Assembly (NCBI GenBank): GCA_025336685.1
Contig: GCA_025336685.1_4717.1
Direction: 5' to 3' (one strand)
Source of the DNA: Escherichia coli
GTDB lineage: Bacteria > Pseudomonadota > Gammaproteobacteria > Enterobacterales > Enterobacteriaceae
Length of the DNA: 64,000 nt
Part shown: positions 3,584 to 41,146 of the stretch, piece by piece
How the letters are laid out: each line of letters starts with the position of its first letter
Position numbering within the stretch: the stretch's first letter is position 1
Notes under the pieces: model-generated
What the model saw: the letters and a program-made list of their open reading frames with translations, nothing else
Told to the model about the DNA's origin: nothing
Database searches by the model: none
Translations under genes and position numbers: made by a program

Positions 3584-4141
3584 ATGGGTATTCTTGTTCA
3601 AAACGCCCTAATCACCAAACAGGCGTTTTTATTACCTGGCGATAGCAGCACGCTGAGTGCCGACATGATTAAAGCGAGACATACACCGTATTCCTACGAT
3701 AACGTCGATGATACCACCTTAGGCGGGAACTGGGTGCTTAACCCACCACCGCAATATACGAAATTTGCCGACATCAAAGAACGGCGACGTGCGGTTATGC
3801 CGGGATCAACGGGCATGGGCCGAGGCTATAGTGAAAGCATTAACAGCTTTAAAGAAGTCGTTACGTTACGATTCGGTAAACCTCGCTTTACAGGCGCAAG
3901 TATCTTCTTTACCGATTTCTACGATGCGGATGTTGCCGTAACGGTTAAAACCGGTCGCGATCCCGGTATTCTTTATTACGCAGCCAAAGCGTATACCACC
4001 GTTCTTTCTTACCTCACGCCTCTACCTTACCTGTATATGGTTGACGTATCGGTCGATATTTCCCGGGTAAGCCTACCAGTCAATATTACTATCAAGTACC
4101 AACCATGCACGTGTATTGGGCGTCTTTCCAGACGCTGGTAA
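3584..4141 (+). CDS. Hypothetical protein (185 aa)
   Basis: ATG preceded by GAGGA 7 nt upstream; follows the terminator-like hairpin after the giant gene. Confidence 0.5.
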   Translation: MGILVQNALITKQAFLLPGDSSTLSADMIKARHTPYSYDNVDDTTLGGNWVLNPPPQYTKFADIKERRRAVMPGSTGMGRGYSESINSFKEVVTLRFGKPRFTGASIFFTDFYDADVAVTVKTGRDPGILYYAAKAYTTVLSYLTPLPYLYMVDVSVDISRVSLPVNITIKYQPCTCIGRLSRRW

Positions 4142-5724
4142 ACCAAACAGCGATAAACATGGGTCTTATCGCCGGTGCTGGTAAAGATAAAGGCTATGTG
4201 GAAGAAGGGGGTACCGTACTCCACCAATATTCAATCGGTGGCCAGAACGTTGAAGAATTCATCAACTACGCCTCTAAGACGCTACCGGGGATTTATAAGA
4301 AAGGTGGTGGGATCGATATCTACCAGATTGCAACACGTCGTCAGCGTATACAAAACGCATGGGTACGTCGTATTCAATCCATGATGGAAAACGATTACTC
4401 GTCTTACGAGGAGTTCTGGAACGATCTTGATAAACGACTTGATAGCGGAGCATTTCCATCGGATGTAACCGGTCGTACGTTAACGCAGTATCTCGCCGAC
4501 ACACAGAAGTCTGCTGTTTACAGTGCGACAGCTGGTGATAATAAACAAACGATGGACGACCTTTTATTCGGAAGGGCCTCATACACCAACAAGGATGCTG
4601 ATGCCAACTTCAAAGTCTCGGCGGCTACCTCCGACGGTGGTACGTCAACACAGAGTCAGGGTACAACAGCCAATGTCGGTAATTCGACATCAGGGACAAC
4701 GCAGGCTGCAACAGCAGCATCGACGGCTGGAGGTGCGAACGTACAGAGCAAAGGGATCGGTCAAACAAATGCGGCCGAGGAAGCTACGTTTCTTGATCTG
4801 ATGGATGCTGAACTGGCTGACGGTGCTCAGTTTATCAGTTTTCGAGTCGATTCTGTCACCAGCGTAACCGAAACGTTTTCAAACAGCGCTTCAGAAAGTT
4901 CAATCGCACAGACGATGAATAGCCGCGCGCAAGCGAACATCGAACGTCGTTTCACCCTCTCCGGTGGTAATACAGGTTGGGCTGTACTAGACGAAGCCAT
5001 CAAAGCCGGTTCCGATCTCGTCAATGGTGCTATTTCCGGGATGGGTCTGGATGGTATTTTTGGTGCCTTCATGGGTTCCGGATTCGCTGACATTCCGAAA
5101 TTCTATTCTGGGTCGTCAGTAAGTCTACCGCGTGCCGATCTGATGATGGAATTGCGTTCCTGGAGTGGGGACCGCTGGTCGATCTTTACGAACCTCATGG
5201 TACCTCTTTTAGCTATCCTCGCAGGTGGCTTACCTCAGGCTACCGGTAAATCGTCCTACGGGATGCCGTTCATGTGTGAGTGTTATATTCCAGGTAAAGT
5301 CCAGATTAAAATGGGTCTTATCGATAACATCACTGTGACGCGTCATGTTGGAAACGTACCATCGACACGCGAACGATTACCGTTGGGCATCGATGTCAGC
5401 TTCAGCGTTTATGACCTATCGTCCATCGTCGCAATGCCGATCACAACGACAGCTGCATCGATCGCAAAATTAGATCCTCGCGGCTTCTTAAGTGATCTTC
5501 TTGCTGATGATACTCCGCTCAACAACTATCTTGCTGTATTATCGGCATTGACACTTACGGAACAAGTTTACATGATTCCTGATTTAAGTCGTCGCATGCA
5601 TAAAACCATGGCCGATATCGATAGTTTCTGGAGCAAAGGTAATTTTGCTAGCTGGTTGTCTGACACCATGCCAGGCAGGATAGCATCAGGGCTGTTATGG
5701 AAACGTACAGAACGACCGTTCTGA
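4105..5724 (+). CDS. Hypothetical protein, possibly structural (start uncertain; alternative ATG at 4159)
   Basis: Long ORF with Ser/Thr/Gly-rich low-complexity stretch; no motif recognised. Confidence 0.5.
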   Translation: MHVYWASFQTLVNQTAINMGLIAGAGKDKGYVEEGGTVLHQYSIGGQNVEEFINYASKTLPGIYKKGGGIDIYQIATRRQRIQNAWVRRIQSMMENDYSSYEEFWNDLDKRLDSGAFPSDVTGRTLTQYLADTQKSAVYSATAGDNKQTMDDLLFGRASYTNKDADANFKVSAATSDGGTSTQSQGTTANVGNSTSGTTQAATAASTAGGANVQSKGIGQTNAAEEATFLDLMDAELADGAQFISFRVDSVTSVTETFSNSASESSIAQTMNSRAQANIERRFTLSGGNTGWAVLDEAIKAGSDLVNGAISGMGLDGIFGAFMGSGFADIPKFYSGSSVSLPRADLMMELRSWSGDRWSIFTNLMVPLLAILAGGLPQATGKSSYGMPFMCECYIPGKVQIKMGLIDNITVTRHVGNVPSTRERLPLGIDVSFSVYDLSSIVAMPITTTAASIAKLDPRGFLSDLLADDTPLNNYLAVLSALTLTEQVYMIPDLSRRMHKTMADIDSFWSKGNFASWLSDTMPGRIASGLLWKRTERPF

Positions 5725-9409: not shown

Positions 9410-10111
9410 TTACTCTCCAGCTTCACCGGTTAACATCTGCATATCGGGAGACGTTTTAATTTTCTTCTCGTACTCTTTTGTTTGTTTGAATACCAATTCA
9501 CCGATTTCTTCCAATTCTTCAACGGTGACGGTATGCAAATAAAGCAGCGGAATAATCCAGGTATTCGCACGAAGCATGTCCTGAATATCGTCAACGGTGG
9601 GTAACTCCGTAAAGAACTGTTCGTCTACCGCAAATAAATCCCGTGCGATACCATCCACCAGTTTATGATCGCTTTCATGGATCCATGCAAAACTTTCAGC
9701 AAGATGGTCAACAAGCATACTGATGTCATCGTCCGTTGAGAACACCGTACGACGAACGTGTGTTGTGAGGTCCATCGTAAAACCCATTAACGAAGGGGTT
9801 TCTTCAGAACGGAGTTCACGCCAAAGACGAAGCATGTTTTCGGGGATAAACAAATCATGGATGAACGTTACGCTGAATTTCGTAATCCAATCACGAATTG
9901 TCGCACCTCTGGAATACTGTTGCGGTGGAGAATACAAATACACCCAACGTTTCGTAAACGCGATAACTTCCTTTCGCATCGCCGCATCTAAAACAAGCAC
10001 GTAACGATCGGAAGCAAGCTCTTCTAACAAAAGCTCGAACGATGTATCGCTCTCTGGGGAGAACGATCGTTTTATTTCTGCGATACGTCGTGATAGCCGA
10101 CTACGTAACAT
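9410..10111 (-). CDS. Hypothetical protein (233 aa)
   Basis: Tightly packed minus-strand ORF. Confidence 0.5.
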   Translation of the reverse strand: MLRSRLSRRIAEIKRSFSPESDTSFELLLEELASDRYVLVLDAAMRKEVIAFTKRWVYLYSPPQQYSRGATIRDWITKFSVTFIHDLFIPENMLRLWRELRSEETPSLMGFTMDLTTHVRRTVFSTDDDISMLVDHLAESFAWIHESDHKLVDGIARDLFAVDEQFFTELPTVDDIQDMLRANTWIIPLLYLHTVTVEELEEIGELVFKQTKEYEKKIKTSPDMQMLTGEAGE

Positions 10112-22801: not shown

Positions 22802-23443
22802 TTATTCAACAAATCCCGCGTTCAACAAATTGTCGTAAACACGATTAGCGACATCAACAGGAGAATGTGTGTTACTGGTGTCTATACACAACGTTTTCGC
22901 GTCGCCGAGATAGTCCATAAAATCCATGTAACGATAACGTCGTTTATTGAATGTCGCTTCATCGATGTTATCAAACATCTGATGTTTAGCGTGTCGAACA
23001 CGGAATCGCCTTAAATACGTAGGATAGTCAATATCCAGATAAACGTAGTAAGACGGCATGATAATCGACGGTAGGTTCGGCAACAACGCATCAAACAGCT
23101 TAACGTTGGCATCATTAACCTGATAAACGTACGTCGAAGCAATCGAACGATCGCTAAGCACAGTCTTCCCTTCGTTAAGGGCTGGATGAATCACCTTATT
23201 GAAGAGATGATTACGTTGCGACATCATCGCCAACAGTTCAGTTTCTGGATCGAATCTGTTCGTTGGCGTCTGATCTTCCAGGATAAGTTTACGAATCGCT
23301 TCTCCGTAGAGTGTACCACCGGGTTCACGTACGACGCAGACGTTGTTTAAACGACTGTGTAAAGACGAGATAACCGAACTCTTTCCTGAATAATCCAGAC
23401 CTTCAATAACGATATATTTATTACGAGACATTCCCCGCTCCAA
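22802..23443 (-). CDS. tmk: Thymidylate (dTMP) kinase
   Basis: N-terminal KYIVIEGLDYSGKSS P-loop, REPGGT and DRSI(A)S motifs match the bacterial Tmk pattern (KYIVIEGLEGAGKTT ... REPGGT ... DR). Confidence 0.75.
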   Translation of the reverse strand: MERGMSRNKYIVIEGLDYSGKSSVISSLHSRLNNVCVVREPGGTLYGEAIRKLILEDQTPTNRFDPETELLAMMSQRNHLFNKVIHPALNEGKTVLSDRSIASTYVYQVNDANVKLFDALLPNLPSIIMPSYYVYLDIDYPTYLRRFRVRHAKHQMFDNIDEATFNKRRYRYMDFMDYLGDAKTLCIDTSNTHSPVDVANRVYDNLLNAGFVE

Positions 23444-24661: not shown

Positions 24662-25276
24662 CTAACGGCGTTTTGTACCGACCTTCCCATTTCGATGGTC
24701 ATCAAGAATACGCCATTCTTCGAACAGGAGTTCAGCTGCGAAATAACCTACGGCGATGCTGTCTATCGCATGCTCATCAAGATTCGCTAACACAACACCG
24801 TTTCTGGGTGTGATGTTCATGAGGTTCAACACTTTCTGGCGAACATCGTCCTTACCGACACGTGACGTCATGATCCCAACGGCGCGTTTTGCGCTTCGGT
24901 TATCAACCCCTAAGAAAGACACCGTAGGGTCAAAATCGATAACCGTTGTCTGAATCGCTGAAAACAGCTCGCTGAGCGCCATACCGCTTTGCTTGAAACG
25001 ACCGATAAACGGTGTTTCACAAGCGACCGCCTGCGGTTGGTACTCTTGCAATAACGACGTCAGCGAACGACGGTGTTCTTGGATACGTGCGGCACGGTTA
25101 CCGTATCCAAGAGCAATATCACCATCAGGATCATATCGGCGTGAGGCGTGCCATGTCCCCGCATAAAGCAGTTCAATATCTTCGACACGCACGTCCAAAC
25201 GCAGTAACGACGCACCGAGTGTATCGGTGCCGGGGTCGATTGCCAGAATATCGTAAGCGTATTCTGGTGGGATCAT
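24662..25276 (-). CDS. RuvC-like Holliday junction resolvase (start moved to ATG 25276, ATGA-coupled to the upstream gene)
   Basis: ILAIDPGTDTLG (first catalytic Asp), ACETPF (Glu), DEHAIDSIAVGYF (His/Asp) follow the RuvC-family arrangement. Confidence 0.6.
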   Translation of the reverse strand: MIPPEYAYDILAIDPGTDTLGASLLRLDVRVEDIELLYAGTWHASRRYDPDGDIALGYGNRAARIQEHRRSLTSLLQEYQPQAVACETPFIGRFKQSGMALSELFSAIQTTVIDFDPTVSFLGVDNRSAKRAVGIMTSRVGKDDVRQKVLNLMNITPRNGVVLANLDEHAIDSIAVGYFAAELLFEEWRILDDHRNGKVGTKRR

Positions 25277-26088
25277 GGTGTTACAACAGCCTCTACCGAC
25301 CACGGGAAGGTTTTCGCAATAACGCCTTCCAGGAAGCGTTCAACTTCGGCTTGCTCATACACCGAAAGCTTTTCAAACGGCGTTTGGTCCTCGGTTAAAC
25401 CCACCGCATGAATGGGACCCAGATCTTTAACCAGGGTAACTTCACCTTTAACGCCTTCACGTTTAACGATAACCGCGTGGTCATTAACCTTAGGATCATA
25501 CAACACACGCATCATGGTTACCGCGTCATCCGGCTCATAACCGAAATCGATCGCAACGCGAGCACTCGTCCCTTCTTCATCCAAGAGCTTGCTCAACGCT
25601 TTACAGCGGTCTTCAATCCAATCCAACGCAACCACGGTTTCTTGGCGTAGCTGAACCTCAACCTCTTTTCCTTGTTCATCGATACGTTTCACGGTAACAA
25701 AATCACGCAATAAGCGGTCAGGAAGAAGGGAAGCGATAAGTTCAACGTTGGGTTCGGGTTTATCGTTTTCCAGGATGATGGTCGCTTGTGCGTCCAGATG
25801 TTCTTTAAAACGGATGTAACGTGTTAATCGCAGAACTTCATCCTGGGATTTTGCGTCTTCGGGAATAATCTCCGTCATGACGTTATAAATCTTTTCAGCG
25901 AACGTTGGAATTACGGTGATTGTAATTCGTGCTGGTGTACCACGCTCCTGGTACTCATCGGCTAACTTCTTTGCCATCCCGTTAAAGTAGGTCTGGAGAA
26001 ACGGTTGTTGGGTTAAAAACATTTTTTCCAGATCGGAATAGCGATGCTTGCGCGCGTGGCCTAGCTTCTTCATGGGCTTTTTCATCAA
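25273..26088 (-). CDS. Hypothetical protein (271 aa) co-transcribed between the Rad50-like ATPase and the RuvC-like resolvase
   Basis: No Mre11/SbcD phosphoesterase motifs (DxH, GDxxD, GNHE) detectable. Confidence 0.5.
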   Translation of the reverse strand: MMKKPMKKLGHARKHRYSDLEKMFLTQQPFLQTYFNGMAKKLADEYQERGTPARITITVIPTFAEKIYNVMTEIIPEDAKSQDEVLRLTRYIRFKEHLDAQATIILENDKPEPNVELIASLLPDRLLRDFVTVKRIDEQGKEVEVQLRQETVVALDWIEDRCKALSKLLDEEGTSARVAIDFGYEPDDAVTMMRVLYDPKVNDHAVIVKREGVKGEVTLVKDLGPIHAVGLTEDQTPFEKLSVYEQAEVERFLEGVIAKTFPWSVEAVVTP

Positions 26089-26106: not shown

Positions 26107-28626
26107 TTAAATAATCGTGACATGTTCGTTATACGTTTCAGGGAGAATGATGTTCGTTTTGTCGAGAACCATACACTCGGCTTTACGGAATGATGCGTGA
26201 TTGATAACATAGTGGCTGATGAACCACACTTGGCTTACACGGTGACCATCGACCAAACGACGAACAAAATCCATGGCATTAGATTGGTGCTGCGGATCAA
26301 ATGTTGATGCGAATTCATCCAGCATCAAGGGATAATCCGTAAACCCTTTGTAATGCATCATCGCGATGATAAACGCGATATTGATAATTTCCTTTTGCCC
26401 CTTACTCCCATAAACAATATCTTTTCGCGGTGTCGGATACTTCTCGGTTAGCAGCGGGAAACGATAATTCAATCCTTGCGCATCGATAGCACAAGGGAGT
26501 ATCTGAAGTTGGTATTCCCAAATACTCGCAATGATACCGTTCATGTATTCGACGAACGCGTTGATTGGACCAGCAATTGTTTCAGCAATCAGGCCGTTAG
26601 ATGGACTTAACTCATCCAGAACAAGTTGTGTGTAACTGAGTTGTTCTTCCACCTCTTTTTGCGTTGTTTCCAGCTGAGCCAAAAGCTGTTGGTCGGTTTT
26701 AGCTTCCTGTAACTGCTGTTCGACATGACTTATTCGTCGAACCGTATCAGACATCGCAGCGCGTAATGATTTCGTGTAGAGGTGTTGCAGATACTCCAAC
26801 CACAGTTGTGTTAACGCTTTATCGCTACTATCAGAACGCACCTGGTCTTCCATAATCGCCGTAATGGTTTCCAATCTACCTTCCGTTGCTGTGATGGCTT
26901 GGGTCAATCGTTCAACGGTCGTTAGCAACTCCGTCCTGTTCTTATAAAGCAGTTCTCGGCGTTGCTGTAATGGTTCAACATCAACAGCTTGTACACGTTC
27001 GAGCATGCCTTGAAGATGCTTCCGTTCTTGTTCGGCTTGGGTGTAACGCGCAAGCTTCTCAAATGCGAGCAGCCAATCATTAATGATTCCAATACTGCGA
27101 AACCCTAATCCGTTTTTACGTCCTTCTTCCAGCAGATTGTCCCACATGGGTTTAATGGCGTAATAATCTTTCGTCCAACGTGTTAACTGACGATGCTGCT
27201 CCATCCAAAGCGTATAACGCTGAACCTTCTCACTCAGCTCAGCTAACGATTTCTCTTGTTCTTCAACCCAAGCACGGCCCTTCTGAATACGTTGTTCGAT
27301 GCTTGCTTTGCTGGTCTTTTCTGTCTCACCAACATGAAAGCGATAATTGCATTTTGGGCAGCTGGTCTGGGGTTGATGGTTAAGGTGGTCAAGATGCGCT
27401 TCCAAGTCAGCTAACGCATGTTTCGCGTTACGCAAACGCATTCGTGCCGCCTCTTCCTCCTTGATGTAAGCTTCAGCATCGTAAACATGATAGGTGTTGT
27501 CGGTATCAATCCATTCTTGCAATAGTTCCGTTAACGGAGCCTGAACTTGCGTGAGCTGTTGTAAACAAACCGCGGCGTCCAGATTCATCGTTAAAAGCTC
27601 ACCTGGATGATCATGCTGGAGTTGTTCGTCCAAACGGGCAAGGCGGGCTTTAATCTGATCGATATCGCCTTCTCCAGACTGTTTCAACTGGTCAAGGATA
27701 TTATCGATACCCAACAGCTCGTCAACCTGACTTTCGAGTTTCGCATTCGCATTCGCGAGTTGCTCTCTTAGTTCAGCCAGATTCCGCTGTTCTTGTTGCG
27801 ATGTTCCTCCTTGGTAACGAACAACTGCACGAAGAAGCTCGCGATTAAAATGATGGGCACGTTGTGTGGATTCCAGAAGCTGTCGTTGATCGACATCGCT
27901 ATCGAATAACGGCAATCCCATCATCGCTTCGAGCGCTGAGCGTTGCTGCTTTAACTCTGCTTCCAATCCCTGGTGGTCGGTTCCAGTGTATTTCGCTTCA
28001 ATTCGCTGTGACGTTTCAACCAACTTATTCAATGTATGCTCATTCACCGCTTTCAGTGAACGTACTTGTTGCTTAACCACCTGAAACAACTCAAGCGCAT
28101 AATCGACGTTAACCGGACATATCTGTGTTAATCGTTCGCGTCGTTTCATCGGTCCCATTTCGGTGAACTGGTAAGCTGTTTCGTAACCTAACAACAAACG
28201 AATGGTGTCGTCATTAAGTTCGAAATGTTCTTCGATCAGTTTCCACTGGGCTGGTTGTGTACCACCACCGTTCAGGTTCTCGCTGTCGTTAACGTAGAAC
28301 TCGTGCTTAAACCCTTTTTCTAAACGACTGATAAGACGGTATTGCTTATTACGGTGTTCGCAGCGGTACTCGTAATACCCATCTTTATCAAAATCGGCGC
28401 GCTCGGGAACGGTTGGATACAGCAAAGGCAGTAGACTACTCTTACCCGAACCGTTACTACCTAAAATGAGTTGTACGGGATTATCTGGCCGGATGACCAG
28501 CTCCCGAATCATCCCGGTATCAAAACGATTGAATCCACGTAAGTGGAGATAGGTGCATCGCATGCTATGATAATCCTTCTTCGATACCTTCTGAACCCGT
28601 GGTTCAGAATGCGAAGCTGAAGCCAT
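26107..28626 (-). CDS. Rad50/SbcC-like SMC-type ATPase with coiled-coil and CxxC zinc hook
   Basis: Walker A GSNGSGKSS; long heptad-rich middle; CPKC hook-like motif; C-terminal signature-like SKGQKE, Walker B YPLMLDEFAS, H-loop ISHY. Confidence 0.7.
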   Translation of the reverse strand: MASASHSEPRVQKVSKKDYHSMRCTYLHLRGFNRFDTGMIRELVIRPDNPVQLILGSNGSGKSSLLPLLYPTVPERADFDKDGYYEYRCEHRNKQYRLISRLEKGFKHEFYVNDSENLNGGGTQPAQWKLIEEHFELNDDTIRLLLGYETAYQFTEMGPMKRRERLTQICPVNVDYALELFQVVKQQVRSLKAVNEHTLNKLVETSQRIEAKYTGTDHQGLEAELKQQRSALEAMMGLPLFDSDVDQRQLLESTQRAHHFNRELLRAVVRYQGGTSQQEQRNLAELREQLANANAKLESQVDELLGIDNILDQLKQSGEGDIDQIKARLARLDEQLQHDHPGELLTMNLDAAVCLQQLTQVQAPLTELLQEWIDTDNTYHVYDAEAYIKEEEAARMRLRNAKHALADLEAHLDHLNHQPQTSCPKCNYRFHVGETEKTSKASIEQRIQKGRAWVEEQEKSLAELSEKVQRYTLWMEQHRQLTRWTKDYYAIKPMWDNLLEEGRKNGLGFRSIGIINDWLLAFEKLARYTQAEQERKHLQGMLERVQAVDVEPLQQRRELLYKNRTELLTTVERLTQAITATEGRLETITAIMEDQVRSDSSDKALTQLWLEYLQHLYTKSLRAAMSDTVRRISHVEQQLQEAKTDQQLLAQLETTQKEVEEQLSYTQLVLDELSPSNGLIAETIAGPINAFVEYMNGIIASIWEYQLQILPCAIDAQGLNYRFPLLTEKYPTPRKDIVYGSKGQKEIINIAFIIAMMHYKGFTDYPLMLDEFASTFDPQHQSNAMDFVRRLVDGHRVSQVWFISHYVINHASFRKAECMVLDKTNIILPETYNEHVTII

Positions 28627-28677
28627 ACTTCAGCGTTATTTTCTATATCGTTATTTAAATCAGTAGGAGATTACAGC

Positions 28678-29766
28678 ATGAGCGATCTGGCAACAGACAA
28701 TCGCACAAAAGGGAGTCAGTTAGCTCCAGACAGCAACGTAAGCGTTTTCCGTATCTTTGCCTTGGGTACCGTTGCTGCCGACTTTTCCAATAAAAGTCTG
28801 GAGGAAGATCCTAACCAGGCGCTGGAGGTCTTTCTTGACGAGATGATGTCAGGTGCTGACGGGAAAGTTGAAGCGGCGGGAAGCGTGAAAGAAGTTAGTG
28901 CAACAGACGCTCAAGGGAACAGCTATACGGCAAAAGCGGCAACAACAACCAGCGTGCAGTGTTACTGGTTACCCTTTGGTAGTAATCGGATGACAGCGCC
29001 TAACTTGAGGAAAGGTCAGCGTGTGGTGGTCTGGCGTACTGCCGATGAAGAACAACTCTATTGGCAGCCCAAAGGAGGGGATAGTGAGCTGATGACCATG
29101 GAATCGGTTATCCTCACCGTCAGTGCACGTCCTAGCGCTAAGAAGGACCGTAAATCGATTTCAACGGAAGACTGCTATTACCTAATGGTTGATACCTTTC
29201 TTAAGAAAGCGGTTATCGGTACAAGCGCACAGCTTGGTGAAGTTACCCAAGTCTACATGGAACTTAATCTGGACGAGGGTTACTTACAGGTTGCGGACAG
29301 CGTCCATCAAAACCTACTATTGCTCCATTTTGTCGAGCATATGCTGCGATACCAAAACCAGGACGACAGCATTATCGACGTAACAAAAAAGAACATCACA
29401 TTCCAATGCGAGGATACGCTCAAAGCAATCGCTAAGAACGATATCCGAATGAAAGCAAAAAATATTTATACGGAATGTGAGAACTTTGAACGTACCAGCA
29501 AAACAGAAAGCGTTACGAGTCAGAATGTTTCTTTGAAATGCGATCGCTACACCGCGCAAGTATCAGGACAAACCATATTCAAATGTCCGAATACGGTATT
29601 CACCGGAGCCGTGAGTTTCACTGGTGAAGACGGAAACACGATGACATTGAACGGTAACTTCATACACGTCGCGGGATCTTGGCGTTCACCAAGCGGAACA
29701 AACGTATACACTCACGACCACGGTGGCGTTAAATCCGGTAGTAGTAGAACCGACCCGTTTCAATAA
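28678..29766 (+). CDS. Hypothetical virion protein, possibly baseplate central spike-like
   Basis: C-terminal THDHGG (HxH) resembles the iron-binding apex of gpV/gp5-type spikes; weak. Confidence 0.45.
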   Translation: MSDLATDNRTKGSQLAPDSNVSVFRIFALGTVAADFSNKSLEEDPNQALEVFLDEMMSGADGKVEAAGSVKEVSATDAQGNSYTAKAATTTSVQCYWLPFGSNRMTAPNLRKGQRVVVWRTADEEQLYWQPKGGDSELMTMESVILTVSARPSAKKDRKSISTEDCYYLMVDTFLKKAVIGTSAQLGEVTQVYMELNLDEGYLQVADSVHQNLLLLHFVEHMLRYQNQDDSIIDVTKKNITFQCEDTLKAIAKNDIRMKAKNIYTECENFERTSKTESVTSQNVSLKCDRYTAQVSGQTIFKCPNTVFTGAVSFTGEDGNTMTLNGNFIHVAGSWRSPSGTNVYTHDHGGVKSGSSRTDPFQ

Positions 29767-29789
29767 AACAAAAAAGAAATACAACATAG

Positions 29790-29824
29790 CCTCCTTCCCC
29801 GGCCTTGGTGGCTAGGGAAGGAGG
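29790..29824. terminator. Family hairpin CCTCCTTCCC-loop-GGGAAGGAGG at a convergent junction
   Basis: 10-bp perfect stem with a 15-nt loop, between 28678..29766 (+) and 29840..30277 (-). Confidence 0.5.
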
Positions 29825-29839
29825 ATTATAGTTTATTTA

Positions 29840-30277
29840 TTAACGCACTGCGTTCTGGATGATTTCTTTTCCGATCTTAACCAAAGCAGGTATCTGCACA
29901 GCGGTTGCGCCTCGATGACGAAACGCGGTCGTTAACGCGGTATCGATACTCACAGCACGTCCGTGGAGACGATCGAAGTAGACTTGCGTGATTGCAGCGG
30001 CGTAATCCTTTCGCTGTTTCTTGGTTTGGTTTAACAGCGCCGCACTATGACTAACGATGAAGTAAGCGATTAAGAAGAACGCCGCCGACCGCGAACCGGG
30101 TAGAAAACCTTGTCGCTTAGGAAGCATCTCACAATCGCGAACAGTATTATCATTCGCGAGCTCATCCATGTCAACACAGCATAATTTTGCATAGGTGTGG
30201 AGATAGTGGGTAAAAGCTGAATTTAACATGTTTCTTTCCTCGATTACAATGAGTTCAATGTATAGCTTAAACGTCAC
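29840..30277 (-). CDS. Small hypothetical protein with one hydrophobic segment (start uncertain; internal ATG at about 30229)
   Basis: ORF with hydrophobic stretch AAFFLIAYFIVSHSAALL. Confidence 0.4.
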   Translation of the reverse strand: MTFKLYIELIVIEERNMLNSAFTHYLHTYAKLCCVDMDELANDNTVRDCEMLPKRQGFLPGSRSAAFFLIAYFIVSHSAALLNQTKKQRKDYAAAITQVYFDRLHGRAVSIDTALTTAFRHRGATAVQIPALVKIGKEIIQNAVR

Positions 30278-36460: not shown

Positions 36461-37354
36461 TTATTCGGAAACGTTGTAACCGAACACCGCTTTACCGTAG
36501 GTGTGAGTACCGTCAGCTAATGACAGCACCAGCACGTGGTTGTACGTAGCGTTAACACCCTTGTCGGTAGACTCGGTGGTAGCACCGTTGTAGACGAAAG
36601 TAGCCGTTTGCAGATTGGCTTTCAGCTCGGTGATGATCTCATCACCCACACCCGTCTGCTCTTTGATCAGCGTGGTCAGGTTACCCGCCAGGCTTTCATC
36701 GATCTTGGTTTCATCACTGGTAATAGCTTGTAAACCTGCGGTGTAGGTGCTGAAGTCTAACGGATAGGTTAACAGACGCGCTGAGGTCTTGGTACCATCG
36801 CCTTCATCAACGTAGGTTAACTTACCCAGGTTGGTAACCTTGATGATGTTAGCCAGATCCAGCGTGGTGTTATAAACTTTAACTTCAACGGAACCGTACC
36901 AAGCCAGCGAATCTTCTTTGGCCTGCAGGGTGATCGTCTGGATACCATGATCGTCGAAGGTAACCGGCGTAGCTAACGTATCGGCTTTGATGTCTTTCGT
37001 TTTATCTAAGAACTTCTCACCGGAAGGCGTGATCATACCGTAGCGTTGAGCTACAAGGTCAACCACGTCACCAATAGTGGTGTTAGCATTAACGTTAACG
37101 CGTACGGCGATCTTCTGGAACCACTTAGCCAGATCCAGACGATGATAGGTAACATCGCGGTCATTGAAGTAAGGTGTACCTTCACCAGGGCTAAGCGTTA
37201 AAGTTGCATCTGGAGCAGAATCGCTTTTGGATTTAAGAACGTATTTAAGGTCGGTGGGTTTGAAGTTGGCACCAGTGTCGGCGTTGAGTGTGTTAATCTC
37301 ATCAACGATAAGTTGCCAAGGTGTTTTTAAAGTAAGTGATACTTGAGCTGTCAT
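36461..37354 (-). CDS. Putative virion structural protein, paralogue family C (YxDR ... AW(T/Y)GSV motifs)
   Basis: Shares motifs with 37498..38040, 48415..49320, 50237..51088 and 51099..52046; codon usage biased towards preferred codons. Confidence 0.55.
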   Translation of the reverse strand: MTAQVSLTLKTPWQLIVDEINTLNADTGANFKPTDLKYVLKSKSDSAPDATLTLSPGEGTPYFNDRDVTYHRLDLAKWFQKIAVRVNVNANTTIGDVVDLVAQRYGMITPSGEKFLDKTKDIKADTLATPVTFDDHGIQTITLQAKEDSLAWYGSVEVKVYNTTLDLANIIKVTNLGKLTYVDEGDGTKTSARLLTYPLDFSTYTAGLQAITSDETKIDESLAGNLTTLIKEQTGVGDEIITELKANLQTATFVYNGATTESTDKGVNATYNHVLVLSLADGTHTYGKAVFGYNVSE

Positions 37355-37497: not shown

Positions 37498-38040
37498 ATG
37501 GCCTTAGACTTTAACAAAGCAGCGAAATCCCTTCTGCTTGATCTGATCAACACCAAAGCAACCCGCGCACTGTCCGAAGAAGAACTGCAGTTCGGTACTC
37601 CGGCGGCATCTTCCGAAAATGCTAAGAACACCGTTATCCAGCTGAATGCTGCGGCTGAAGCAGAAAACCTGCAGGGTACTCAGCAGTTCTACTACGATCG
37701 TCTGGCTCTGTCTGACGTTTTCGCTGATGTAACCAGCGATGTTACTTTCGAACTGCCGCACGGTACTGACAGCATTAAGGCTTCTGAGCTGGTAAGCAAG
37801 CTGGTCACCAAGTTCGGTCTGGCTTCCCTGACCGGTGAAATCAATGAAGAAACCTTCCAGCTGTCCGCAGGTACTGTTGGTCAGGTAACCCTGACTGCGA
37901 TCGAGGGTGGTATGGTATATACCGGTACTCTGCAGGTTGCCCTGACCTACGCAGCAGCACCGAAAGACAATCTGGCAACCGTTCTGGCGGATAACGTAGC
38001 TGATGGCTTCGTGAAACCTGAAGTTGCTGTCGTTGGCTAA
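37498..38040 (+). CDS. Small putative major virion/decoration protein, paralogue family C, with strongly biased codon usage
   Basis: FYYDRLALSDVF and GMVYTGTLQVAL motifs; heavy use of CTG, GGT, ACC, GCT, GAA codons; SD AGAGGA upstream; apparently monocistronic. Confidence 0.6.
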   Translation: MALDFNKAAKSLLLDLINTKATRALSEEELQFGTPAASSENAKNTVIQLNAAAEAENLQGTQQFYYDRLALSDVFADVTSDVTFELPHGTDSIKASELVSKLVTKFGLASLTGEINEETFQLSAGTVGQVTLTAIEGGMVYTGTLQVALTYAAAPKDNLATVLADNVADGFVKPEVAVVG

Positions 38041-38335: not shown

Positions 38336-38971
38336 TTATTCAACACTGAAACCGTTCAAACAGATGGCTTCGTAACGTTTACGTTCACGGCGTTTGCGTG
38401 CCTGCCAACCGTAAATGAACTTCTCGTCTTTCTCACGACGTTCCGCTAATTCGATGTAATAGGTGCTCTGCATGTCCAGCATTGCATCGATGAGATAATC
38501 CTTACCGGTTGCGCCACGCTTAGCGATGTAGGCATCAAGAGCCGCCAGTGTTTTGGGACCCATTGCGCCATCAGCGTCGATATTTTTCCAGTAAGTTTGG
38601 CGGTTGTTCATGACGTTCAGATAACGCTGAAGGTTCTTAACCGGTACGGTTTTGCCTGCGTTGATACCCAGGTCAAAGAGACGATCAGCCAAGAACACGG
38701 AACGTTTCATGACCTCATCAAGCTTCATCTTATCCCAGAAGTGGGTCTTGTAGATGAAGAACGCCATTTCCGTGGTAAGGTTACGCATATTACCGTCCCA
38801 CCCGAATTTCGTTTTCAGCGTGGTTTTGTACTGATCCGCAAGCGCTTTCGTAATGCCGTGGTTCGTGATCCCACCAGAGTCATCGGGATCGTCGACGTAA
38901 CCTGCTTCGATGCTAGTTTTATCACGAATGATAAATTCGCAAGTAAAATCTTTTTCAGTAATCTTGGCCAT
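38336..38971 (-). CDS. Endolysin: GH108-family lysozyme with C-terminal peptidoglycan-binding (PG_binding_3-like) domain
   Basis: N-terminal IEAGYVDDPDDSGGITNHGIT matches the GH108 E...GGY.DDP.D.GG.T..GIT signature; C-terminal half resembles PG_binding_3. Confidence 0.7.
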   Translation of the reverse strand: MAKITEKDFTCEFIIRDKTSIEAGYVDDPDDSGGITNHGITKALADQYKTTLKTKFGWDGNMRNLTTEMAFFIYKTHFWDKMKLDEVMKRSVFLADRLFDLGINAGKTVPVKNLQRYLNVMNNRQTYWKNIDADGAMGPKTLAALDAYIAKRGATGKDYLIDAMLDMQSTYYIELAERREKDEKFIYGWQARKRRERKRYEAICLNGFSVE

Positions 38972-39097: not shown

Positions 39098-41146
39098 TCA
39101 AATACCTTTGGTTCCCTTCACGTGATGTGCAATTTCTTCAACCATTGCACGCAACGCACGAAGCTGCTGGTCGTGTTCGTACCAACCGCCCAACAGAACC
39201 CCGCTATACACCATGGTGTCAAGACTTAACAGTCCTTTATCTGATACGTTGATCATTTCCGGGAACTGTTCTTGAACACGCTGTGCGATGACACCGATCT
39301 TCTCTACATCAGGATCGTAGTTGTGACGGAAACGGGCAAGCCCGCTGCGCGCCATTTCACGTAAACGTTCGCTAAGAGATTCTGGATGGTCTTTCAGGTA
39401 ACGGATGTCATGTTTACTACGCTCATCTGAACGGATGTAAGCGTTAGGAACATCGATGTTACTGTTGAAGTACAGTGCGCTACCACCACCTGCAGAGTTA
39501 CCCCAATAGAAGCGTGTGATCTCCCCACCGCCATTTTCCGTGATGATAACATGTTTACCTAAACGCGTGCCACCATTGCCGTCAACGAAGACCAGTTTGT
39601 TTCCGCTGTAAGAACCCCAGAACAAACGTGTGTCGATGATGTGCGTTGCAGCGAGACGAGCGTTACGCGGTGTAGAATACACGGTGTTAACATCTTGCTG
39701 CGCTTGCGCATCGGAAGCGATACCGTAGTTCTGTACGTTCCCTAAACCTACCTGCGCTTTCGTAACAGCATGTGGGTTATCTCGACGGTTAGCGTGAGCG
39801 TTAACCAGATCGCCCGCCAGTTTTTGAATAGCCCAGTTGGTAGACTGTGGTGTCATGTAACGGTTCGTTGCAGAACCACCTTGCGCCTCAGCTTGGTTAG
39901 CGGTTGGGTAGTTCTCAACGCTTCCTAACCCCACTTGTGCTTTAGACACTTGGTGTGGGTTGTTCTTGTCAGCGATGTGTGCATTAAGCGGAACTAACGC
40001 AAAGGTCTCAATGGACGCTTTGGTTGTGTTCGGTGCCATTAATCGGTTAGCTGCAACACCGGCACGCGCTTCATCCTCAGACGCCATTGGGTAGTCTTGT
40101 ACATTCCCTAACCCAACCTGCGCTTTGGTTACCCTGTGTGGGTTGTTGTAATCGGCTTTATGTGCGTTAAGCGGAATCAATGCGAACTGTTCAATCGCTG
40201 CAACGGTACGCAACGGCGTCATGAAACGGTTGTTCGCGGTTCCGCCCTTCGCCTCGCTATCCGAAGCGGTAGGGAAGTTATCAACGTTCCCAAGGTTAAC
40301 CTGCGCTTTGGTGACGCTATGCGGGTTATCTTTACGGTTAGCGTGAGCATCGACTAGGTCACCAGCCAGTTTAGCGATTGCCCATCCAACCGTTTGTGCG
40401 GTCATGTACCGATCAGGTGCGGTACCGGCTTCTGACTCCGCCTTGTTTGCGGTAGGGTAGTTCTGTACGTTACCTAGTCCAACTTGGGCTTTGGTGGTTT
40501 CGTGTGGGTTATCGGTACGGTTAGCATGCGCGTAATGCAGATCGGTAAGATTTTTATCCGCTGCTTGCATGTCTTTGCGTAACTGATCGATTGCTGCCCA
40601 GAGACGGTTATCGGACGCAGCGTCGCCGATAAGTATCGCGGCTTTCAGTGAATAGATCGCTAAGCAAAGATGTTCGGTACCGTAGATAGCACTAACGTGG
40701 TGGATGTGTGGTTCAGGCGGATAAAGTTCCGGTTTGTTCTTGATGTCGTCCCAGTTGATCGGACGATCGTCAAGTTTGAGTTCTTCGATAGCCTGATATA
40801 ACGCGTCAATAAGACTTACGTAAACACCACCGATGATACGATAGTCGTTAACTAACGTACCCTCGATGTCATCGTTGATGATGGCGATAGCCGCACAGAT
40901 TTCTTTACCGGCGTAAAGCGTAGCGTCCTGATACAAGAAGATGGGTTTGTAGTCCACGCCTCGCACCAGTGTCTTACCGGTAAGCTTTTCAGTGATGACC
41001 AGACTTTCGGTGAAGAACGGTCCGCCGTCGAGGGCGTAACATTTATTCTCGGTTCGTGGAACGGTGTGCTCTTCACCAACGATGTGGTTGCTATCGAGCG
41101 TGCCGGTCCAGTCCTCGGGGTACTTCAGGGTAATTGGTGTTGACAT
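39098..41146 (-). CDS. Tail fibre protein with 5 NPHxVTKAQVGLGNVxN repeats and a C-terminal S74-type intramolecular chaperone domain
   Basis: Five roughly 57-aa repeats (H-A-N-R-x-D-N-P-H-x-V-T-K-A-Q-V-G-L-G-N-V); C-terminal SDERSK at about nt 39411-39428 matches the SDxRxK autoproteolysis motif. Confidence 0.8.
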   Translation of the reverse strand: MSTPITLKYPEDWTGTLDSNHIVGEEHTVPRTENKCYALDGGPFFTESLVITEKLTGKTLVRGVDYKPIFLYQDATLYAGKEICAAIAIINDDIEGTLVNDYRIIGGVYVSLIDALYQAIEELKLDDRPINWDDIKNKPELYPPEPHIHHVSAIYGTEHLCLAIYSLKAAILIGDAASDNRLWAAIDQLRKDMQAADKNLTDLHYAHANRTDNPHETTKAQVGLGNVQNYPTANKAESEAGTAPDRYMTAQTVGWAIAKLAGDLVDAHANRKDNPHSVTKAQVNLGNVDNFPTASDSEAKGGTANNRFMTPLRTVAAIEQFALIPLNAHKADYNNPHRVTKAQVGLGNVQDYPMASEDEARAGVAANRLMAPNTTKASIETFALVPLNAHIADKNNPHQVSKAQVGLGSVENYPTANQAEAQGGSATNRYMTPQSTNWAIQKLAGDLVNAHANRRDNPHAVTKAQVGLGNVQNYGIASDAQAQQDVNTVYSTPRNARLAATHIIDTRLFWGSYSGNKLVFVDGNGGTRLGKHVIITENGGGEITRFYWGNSAGGGSALYFNSNIDVPNAYIRSDERSKHDIRYLKDHPESLSERLREMARSGLARFRHNYDPDVEKIGVIAQRVQEQFPEMINVSDKGLLSLDTMVYSGVLLGGWYEHDQQLRALRAMVEEIAHHVKGTKGI
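39646..40534 (-). repeat. Tandem in-frame coding repeats (5 units of about 170 bp) within the tail fibre gene
   Basis: Repeated protein motif NPHxVTKAQVGLGNVQNY(P/G)xA and recurring DNA words such as CAGGTTGGGTTAGGGAACGT variants. Confidence 0.6.

Follow-up and report, generated by a model that had tools for sequence, protein, structure and literature searches.

Can a gene that lies among recombination and replication genes encode the needle of a phage tail? The question arises from a 64,000-nucleotide stretch of DNA from Escherichia coli (GenBank assembly GCA_025336685.1, contig GCA_025336685.1_4717.1; hereafter the window), in which a single open reading frame with an ATG start (28678..29766, plus strand) encodes a protein of 362 residues plus stop. 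The initial annotation, made from the letters alone, had noticed a C-terminal THDHGG, had compared it with the histidine pairs at the tips of gpV/gp5-type membrane-piercing spikes, and had cautioned that a gene in such company might be misplaced or have another role. The reading frame and its ending are as described: the protein finishes with ...NVYTHDHGGVKSGSSRTDPFQ, and THDHGG forms residues 345–350 (nucleotides 29710–29727). The neighbours are also as described, and include SMC/SbcC-like, RuvC-like and thymidylate kinase reading frames. We conclude, with a probability of about 0.93, that this is the gene for the central spike of the baseplate, the needle with which a Goslar-like chimallivirus would pierce the membrane, and that this spike carries its own HxH (His-x-His) tip.

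The gene matches HOV27_gp013 of Escherichia phage vB_EcoM_Goslar with 92.8% nucleotide and 97.8% amino acid identity. Over 24 kb around the gene, the window and Goslar are collinear (92.6% identity); the window is therefore DNA of a Goslar-like chimallivirus, that is, a phiKZ-like jumbo phage. Codon differences between the window gene and gp013 are 67 synonymous and 8 non-synonymous, so the gene is under purifying selection and is real. Its best match in the Protein Data Bank (PDB) is chain qs of entry 36za (362 residues, three chains; E = 5e-240), the sequence of which is exactly that of Goslar gp013 (YP_009820698.1). The PDB sequence file names this chain ‘Tail terminator gp51’, a name that we rejected because the chain has the gp013 sequence and is present in three copies; gp51 is assigned to the hexameric terminator at the neck (10.64898/2026.04.21.720040). 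The label is probably an error in the deposition or in a file derived from it.

For Goslar gp13 the experimental record is direct. In a preprint describing the virion by electron cryomicroscopy (cryo-EM), gp13 is modelled as the C3-symmetric baseplate hub spike in three copies, and virion mass spectrometry of purified Goslar lists gp013 as ‘Tail spike’, in the baseplate, again in three copies (10.64898/2026.04.21.720040). Virion proteomics, which had been suggested as a check on the spike assignment, therefore already exists for a protein 97.8% identical to this one. The same authors note that the hub and spike closely resemble those of T4 in architecture (10.64898/2026.04.21.720040). The window spike is thus already known, as the orthologue of an experimentally located protein. 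Experiments on Goslar gp13 show that it trimerizes, lies in the baseplate and is present in virions; by analogy this would extend to the window spike, and by homology so would a role in piercing.

The two proteins have the same length and an identical THDHGG, and in both genomes a divergent SbcC-like gene lies upstream of the spike gene and a terminator downstream. They differ by eight substitutions, three of which (K352D, S353R and S356G) lie C-terminal to the HxH motif, among the last 11 residues. These three (residues 352–356, window positions 29731–29745) cluster at the exposed tip. The clustering hints at faster evolution of a surface that contacts the membrane, and substitutions at the very tip could be relevant to host range. 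The spike gene begins at 28678 in the window and at 10070 in the Goslar record, and the match of the window begins at record position 1. The window thus opens about 18.6 kb before the arbitrary coordinate 1 of Goslar, and the two sequences have different start points, the genome being permuted or opened differently.

Beyond Goslar, the protein matches PHROG 3216 (‘baseplate assembly protein’) with E = 2.7e-61 across residues 20–360, nearly from end to end, and tblastn with the spike found 256 phage records, nearly all of them jumbo phages. Its second PDB match is phiKZ gp164 (6orj/9xph; phmmer E = 5e-27 over residues 24–253), to which it is about 28% identical over residues 22–249 by tblastn. 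A Pfam match to PatG_D (E = 0.047) and PDB matches at E > 0.1 were dismissed as noise. A first single-sequence search by word index yielded four homologues, and an exhaustive search of representatives yielded 1148 matches at E ≤ 0.001; the alignment used for structure prediction held 75 sequences from two homologue searches.

The AlphaFold2 (AF2) model, which covered the monomer alone, has a mean predicted local distance difference test score (pLDDT) of 74.6. It shows an N-terminal beta domain of eight strands, mostly at high pLDDT, and further strands at residues 166–243, with pLDDT 86–96 across residues 161–260. Searched against the PDB with Foldseek, the model found 9xph_I, from the central part of the baseplate in phiKZ (E = 2.6e-17; template-modelling (TM) score by target 0.60), and 6orj, ‘Central spike of phiKZ phage tail’ (E = 2.2e-14; TM score by target 0.67). 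Next came central spikes of the VgrG-like kind, from two extracellular contractile injection systems (E ≤ 1.4e-5), and the VgrG spikes of the Photorhabdus virulence cassette (PVC) and the type VI secretion system (T6SS) matched more weakly (E ~2e-3 to 4e-3). We accordingly divide the protein, with estimated boundaries, into an OB-fold-like N-terminal beta-barrel (~residues 20–150; 28735..29127), defined by the eight AF2 strands and by Foldseek to 9xph_I/6orj; a beta-rich shaft (~residues 160–340; 29155..29697), with AF2 strands in its first half; and a putative Apex domain (~residues 341–362, GTNVYTHDHGGVKSGSSRTDPFQ; 29698..29763), all on the plus strand.

The fold that had been proposed, an OB-fold followed by a trimeric beta-helix, was borne out in part: an OB-like barrel and a beta-rich domain match the phiKZ spike, and the trimeric helix, which lies outside the reach of a monomer model, was not reproduced. 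The outcome that had been named as speaking against a spike, a fold with neither an OB-fold nor a beta-helix, is not what we found. In phiKZ, gp164 is located in the baseplate as a trimer, in which the hub contacts the OB-fold domains and which has a beta-helical domain (PMC13250141). By analogy, the C-terminal half of the window spike shaft is presumably an intertwined trimeric beta-helix. With homology over its full length, an N-terminal barrel and beta-rich fold that match a solved spike, and a conserved genomic position (described below), the window protein belongs to the chimallivirus central spike family (phiKZ gp164/Goslar gp13; PHROG 3216).

What kind of tip does this spike carry? The HxH motif, His346-Asp347-His348 (29713..29721, plus strand; codons 29713–29715 for His346 and 29719–29721 for His348), sits 17 residues from the C-terminus, inside the range of about 15–20 residues that defines such an apex. 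With six histidines in 362 residues, chance alone would give ~33 × (6/362)^2 = 0.009 HxH motifs within the last 35 residues. Among the cultured chimallivirus spike orthologues that we first sampled, nine of 11 have an HxH 15–20 residues from the C-terminus, and the motif is invariant across 43 aligned homologous C-termini, a set chosen for carrying it. BLASTP against P2 gpV (NC_001895) aligned the last 59 residues with 34% identity (E = 4e-4) and placed H346-D-H348 on gpV H197-K-H199. In P2, three copies of H197/H199 supply the six histidines of an octahedral Fe cage, and the aligned pair in the window spike is predicted to form a metal-binding histidine cage on trimerization. A profile of the 43 HxH-bearing C-termini matched, at E ≤ 0.1 and besides Goslar gp13, spike apexes alone, among them the OBP gp146 apex chimera (1.6e-5), P2 gpV (3e-4 to 6e-4), a ‘tail tip gp86’ and the ‘Baseplate Central Spike’ gp27 of Milano. 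Mu gp45 and E217 gp44 followed at 0.12–0.25. That the C-terminus is a gpV-type apex domain is thus well supported at the level of sequence.

The likeness to P2 gpV (3qr7/3qr8) lies in the succession of OB domain, beta-helix and apex, and in an upstream GN(I/F)xH motif common to both. In contrast, gpV has 211 residues to the 362 of the window spike, its HxH is followed by PGDSGG where the window spike has GG, and we detected no sequence homology to gpV in either the N-terminal domain or the shaft. Comparison of the 75-member family profile with full-length gpV, profile to profile, likewise gave nothing (probability 0.4), because the apex is missing from most members and divergence among the N-terminal domains is too great; the apex link was recovered by pairwise BLASTP and by the C-terminus-only profile alone. 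No Pfam match to Phage_base_V was found in the spike. On these grounds the protein would not be counted as a full-length member of the gpV or Phage_base_V family, and it appears to work like gpV.

The comparison with gp5, in turn, was imprecise. T4 gp5/gp5.4 occupies the same functional position as the window spike, but gp5 has no HxH and depends for its tip on the PAAR protein gp5.4, so that of the ‘gpV/gp5-type’ label only the gpV half stands. The window spike also differs from gp5 in having no lysozyme domain in our Pfam search, and the match of its model to T4 1k28 was insignificant (Foldseek E = 0.25).

T4 and phiKZ do, however, show how a spike can be tipped by a separate protein. In phiKZ, gp164 is followed directly by gp163.1, an 88-residue PAAR protein (Pfam PAAR_motif E = 1.6e-6) that is the monomeric ‘spike tip’ by cryo-EM (PMC13250141). 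The window spike might be capped in the same way, with its HxH incidental or serving to keep the chains in register. The homologous spikes of phiKZ, 201phi2-1 and PhiPA3 do use a PAAR tip, and cages of the HxH type are also present in tail fibres, where they serve register or stability. We nevertheless consider a separate tip protein very unlikely here. The PAAR-bearing relatives have shorter spikes of 261–293 residues with no C-terminal HxH: phiKZ gp164 has 293 and ends bluntly, in ...FTAPRYDFT, and the spikes of 201phi2-1 and PhiPA3, each with an adjacent PAAR gene, have 279 and 261. The window spike shares with gp164 the homologous N-terminal OB-fold and beta-rich domains, the inferred trimeric state at the baseplate centre and a gene divergent from an SbcC-like gene, but its shaft is longer, its HxH apex is built in and its gene has no PAAR gene next to it. 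Between its stop codon and the terminator hairpin that directly follows there is no open reading frame, and none of the PAAR kind lies downstream in Goslar either. In tblastn searches the phiKZ PAAR protein found nothing in the 64-kb window (best E = 0.3), and its 78 phage records included 73 Pseudomonas phages and no Escherichia phage. In Goslar itself the hub and spike density is fully assigned by gp13, gp48, gp203 and gp62 alone, with no tip protein (10.64898/2026.04.21.720040). Finally, the C-terminus aligns specifically to solved apex domains. With an HxH present and no PAAR gene adjacent, the window spike does not resemble a PAAR-capped one.

The same division runs through the family. 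A C-terminal HxH is found in the window spike and in those of Goslar, Deimos-Minion, Kc263, SPN3US, RisingSun, Aeromonas D6, Vibrio 2 TSL-2019 and Moabite, and directly downstream of the spike gene in these nine there is no annotated PAAR-like gene. Work on P2 and T4 had led to the published rule by which a spike lacking an HxH at its C-terminus bears a PAAR protein, and the split between HxH and PAAR among chimallivirus spikes matches that rule. A large third class of spikes ends in ...(I)TAPN(LQYN/V); in its members from Ralstonia phage RSL2 (3133–4008 of the locus used) and from a metagenomic contig (protein P0004, at 4001–4975), the C-terminal HxH is missing and no PAAR gene is adjacent. 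Such spikes may be capped by a PAAR protein encoded elsewhere in the genome, or may carry another kind of tip. The phiKZ gp164 ending, ...FTAPRYDFT, is similar to the ...TAPN ending of this class. Among 220 homologues retrieved from metagenomic and cultured sources, 44 (~20%) have a C-terminal HxH and 65 (~30%) an ...APN... end. It is conceivable, although we hold the idea only tentatively, that the tip has been exchanged repeatedly within one chimallivirus spike family, the window spike being one state of a modular system that is possibly tuned to the host envelope.

Several observations weigh against a spike with a gpV-type apex. The Pfam Apex model (PF18946, ‘GpV Apex motif’, 23 positions) matches residues 345–359 at E = 0.01 with 16.4 bits, below its cut-off of 20.8; this shortfall is compensated by the independent BLASTP and profile alignments to gpV and OBP gp146. 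The N-terminal domain has no sequence link to P2 gpV (hhalign probability 0.4). In the AF2 monomer, residues 270–287 and 341–362 are of low confidence (pLDDT < 50), and the model failed to yield either the beta-helix or the apex fold. The absence of a PAAR protein is drawn from the 64-kb window and from one tblastn query across phage genomes. The Goslar preprint mentions no iron, histidine or apex (10.64898/2026.04.21.720040). Lastly, in the laboratory P2 can infect without its apex and histidine cage; how much the HxH matters to the function of the window spike is therefore uncertain, and its contribution may be conditional.

These last two points bear on the metal. We infer from the analogy with gpV that His346 and His348 bind iron. 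The apex could instead fold as predicted around a metal other than iron, or around none, and aid folding or stability more than penetration. In P2, deletion of the apex or replacement of the cage by Phe left infectivity in the laboratory at the wild-type level, and no metal has been reported for Goslar gp13 (10.64898/2026.04.21.720040). Set against this, the apex-bearing members of the family all keep the HxH, and we regard a cage of this other kind as unlikely, if not strongly so.

Under the preferred reading of a central spike with its own HxH tip, three copies of the protein would form a C3 trimer, with the N-terminal OB-fold-like barrels docked under the trimeric spike cap/hub and the beta-rich shafts intertwined into a triple beta-helix. 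The final ~20 residues would close into a cone, the apex, where His346 and His348 of each chain would together make a cage of six histidines that holds a metal (by analogy with P2 gpV, Fe), and this cage would stiffen and sharpen the tip. Contraction of the sheath would then drive the spike through the outer membrane of E. coli ahead of the tail tube. After piercing, the spike would probably dissociate, as proposed for phiKZ and T4 (PMC13250141).

We now return to the setting of the gene. On its 5′ side, across a gap of 51 bp, lies a divergent SbcC/SMC-like gene of 839 residues (26107..28626, minus strand; Pfam SMC_N E = 6.4e-10), which is not part of the spike. A RuvC-like reading frame (24662–25303) and a thymidylate kinase (22802–23443) are on the minus strand as well, and the spike gene is the lone plus-strand gene among minus-strand genes in its part of the window. 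A gene for an SbcC/SMC/RecN-like protein of ~810–850 residues is divergent from the spike gene in 11 cultured chimalliviruses and two metagenomic contigs. The pair is present in Goslar, KTN4 (of the phiKZ species), Erwinia Deimos-Minion and RisingSun, Kosakonia Kc263, Aeromonas D6, Vibrio 2 TSL-2019, Ralstonia RSL2, Serratia Moabite, 201phi2-1 and PhiPA3; in the Vibrio and Ralstonia phages the large neighbour is annotated as hypothetical, and was identified by size and position. Spanning at least ten chimallivirus genera, the pairing reads as conserved synteny and as an ancestral arrangement, and this disposes of the suggestion that the spike gene is misplaced. The sole exception among those sampled is SPN3US, which has the spike gene but, in its annotation, no SbcC-like neighbour. 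The pairing, which joins two unrelated functions, might reflect shared regulation, and not mere ancestry.

So tight a conservation of two divergent genes, 51 bp apart in the window, could also be taken to mean that the protein is not, or not solely, a virion spike and that its role is tied to the SbcC-like/RuvC recombination and repair genes. We give this next to no credence. For the 97.8%-identical orthologue it is already contradicted, as Goslar gp13 is found in the baseplate and in virions, and phiKZ gp164 too is in the baseplate. Pfam and PHROG searches detected no nucleic-acid enzyme domain in the spike, and SPN3US retains the spike without the annotated neighbour. Moreover, virion-associated genes are interspersed with non-structural ones near the spike, and the Goslar annotation shows a similar mix. 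In the window these include two DUF7941 paralogues (36461–37354, minus strand, and 37498–38040, plus strand), a muramidase with GH108 and PG_binding_3 domains (38336–38971, minus strand) and a 682-residue Peptidase_S74 protein (39098–41146, minus strand). The DUF7941 family has been proposed to be associated with the peripheral baseplate (10.64898/2026.04.21.720040), and the Peptidase_S74 intramolecular-chaperone domain is typical of tail fibres or spikes.

The central spike gene itself is framed by recognizable signals. A Shine-Dalgarno sequence, AGGAG (28665..28669, plus strand), can be read off 8 nucleotides 5′ of the ATG. Downstream, between the spike gene and a convergent minus-strand open reading frame (29840–30277), RNA folding predicts a strong hairpin (29777..29838, with a GC-rich core at 29790–29824) of −32.1 kcal/mol (z = −5.5), the stability of which was equalled in none of 200 shuffles (0/200). 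T-rich runs flank the hairpin on both strands, which makes a bidirectional terminator probable, and the Goslar record annotates a terminator at the matching place. A simple terminator scan of the window missed this hairpin; that scan and a sigma-70 promoter scan gave counts at shuffle level and were uninformative. Chimalliviruses use their own RNA polymerases.

Within the distal shaft, four cysteines recur in similar contexts (FQCED, TECEN, LKCDR and FKCPN; residues 243–304, window positions 29404–29590). Their recurrence suggests a periodic, inward-facing position of the beta-helix. They are partly conserved in a homologue of 55% identity (P0002) and absent from one of 48% identity (P0003).

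Taken at this strength, the analysis assigns a gene in a Goslar-like phage as the tail central spike and leaves the current understanding of these spikes unchanged. The apparent anomaly of a tail gene beside recombination genes is removed, since phiKZ-like jumbo phages scatter their structural genes. The HxH/PAAR rule, for its part, predicts that phages of the Goslar type can do without a PAAR protein. The modularity of the tip, with an apex, a PAAR protein or the ending of the third class, would be the one modest comparative addition to what the literature already holds.

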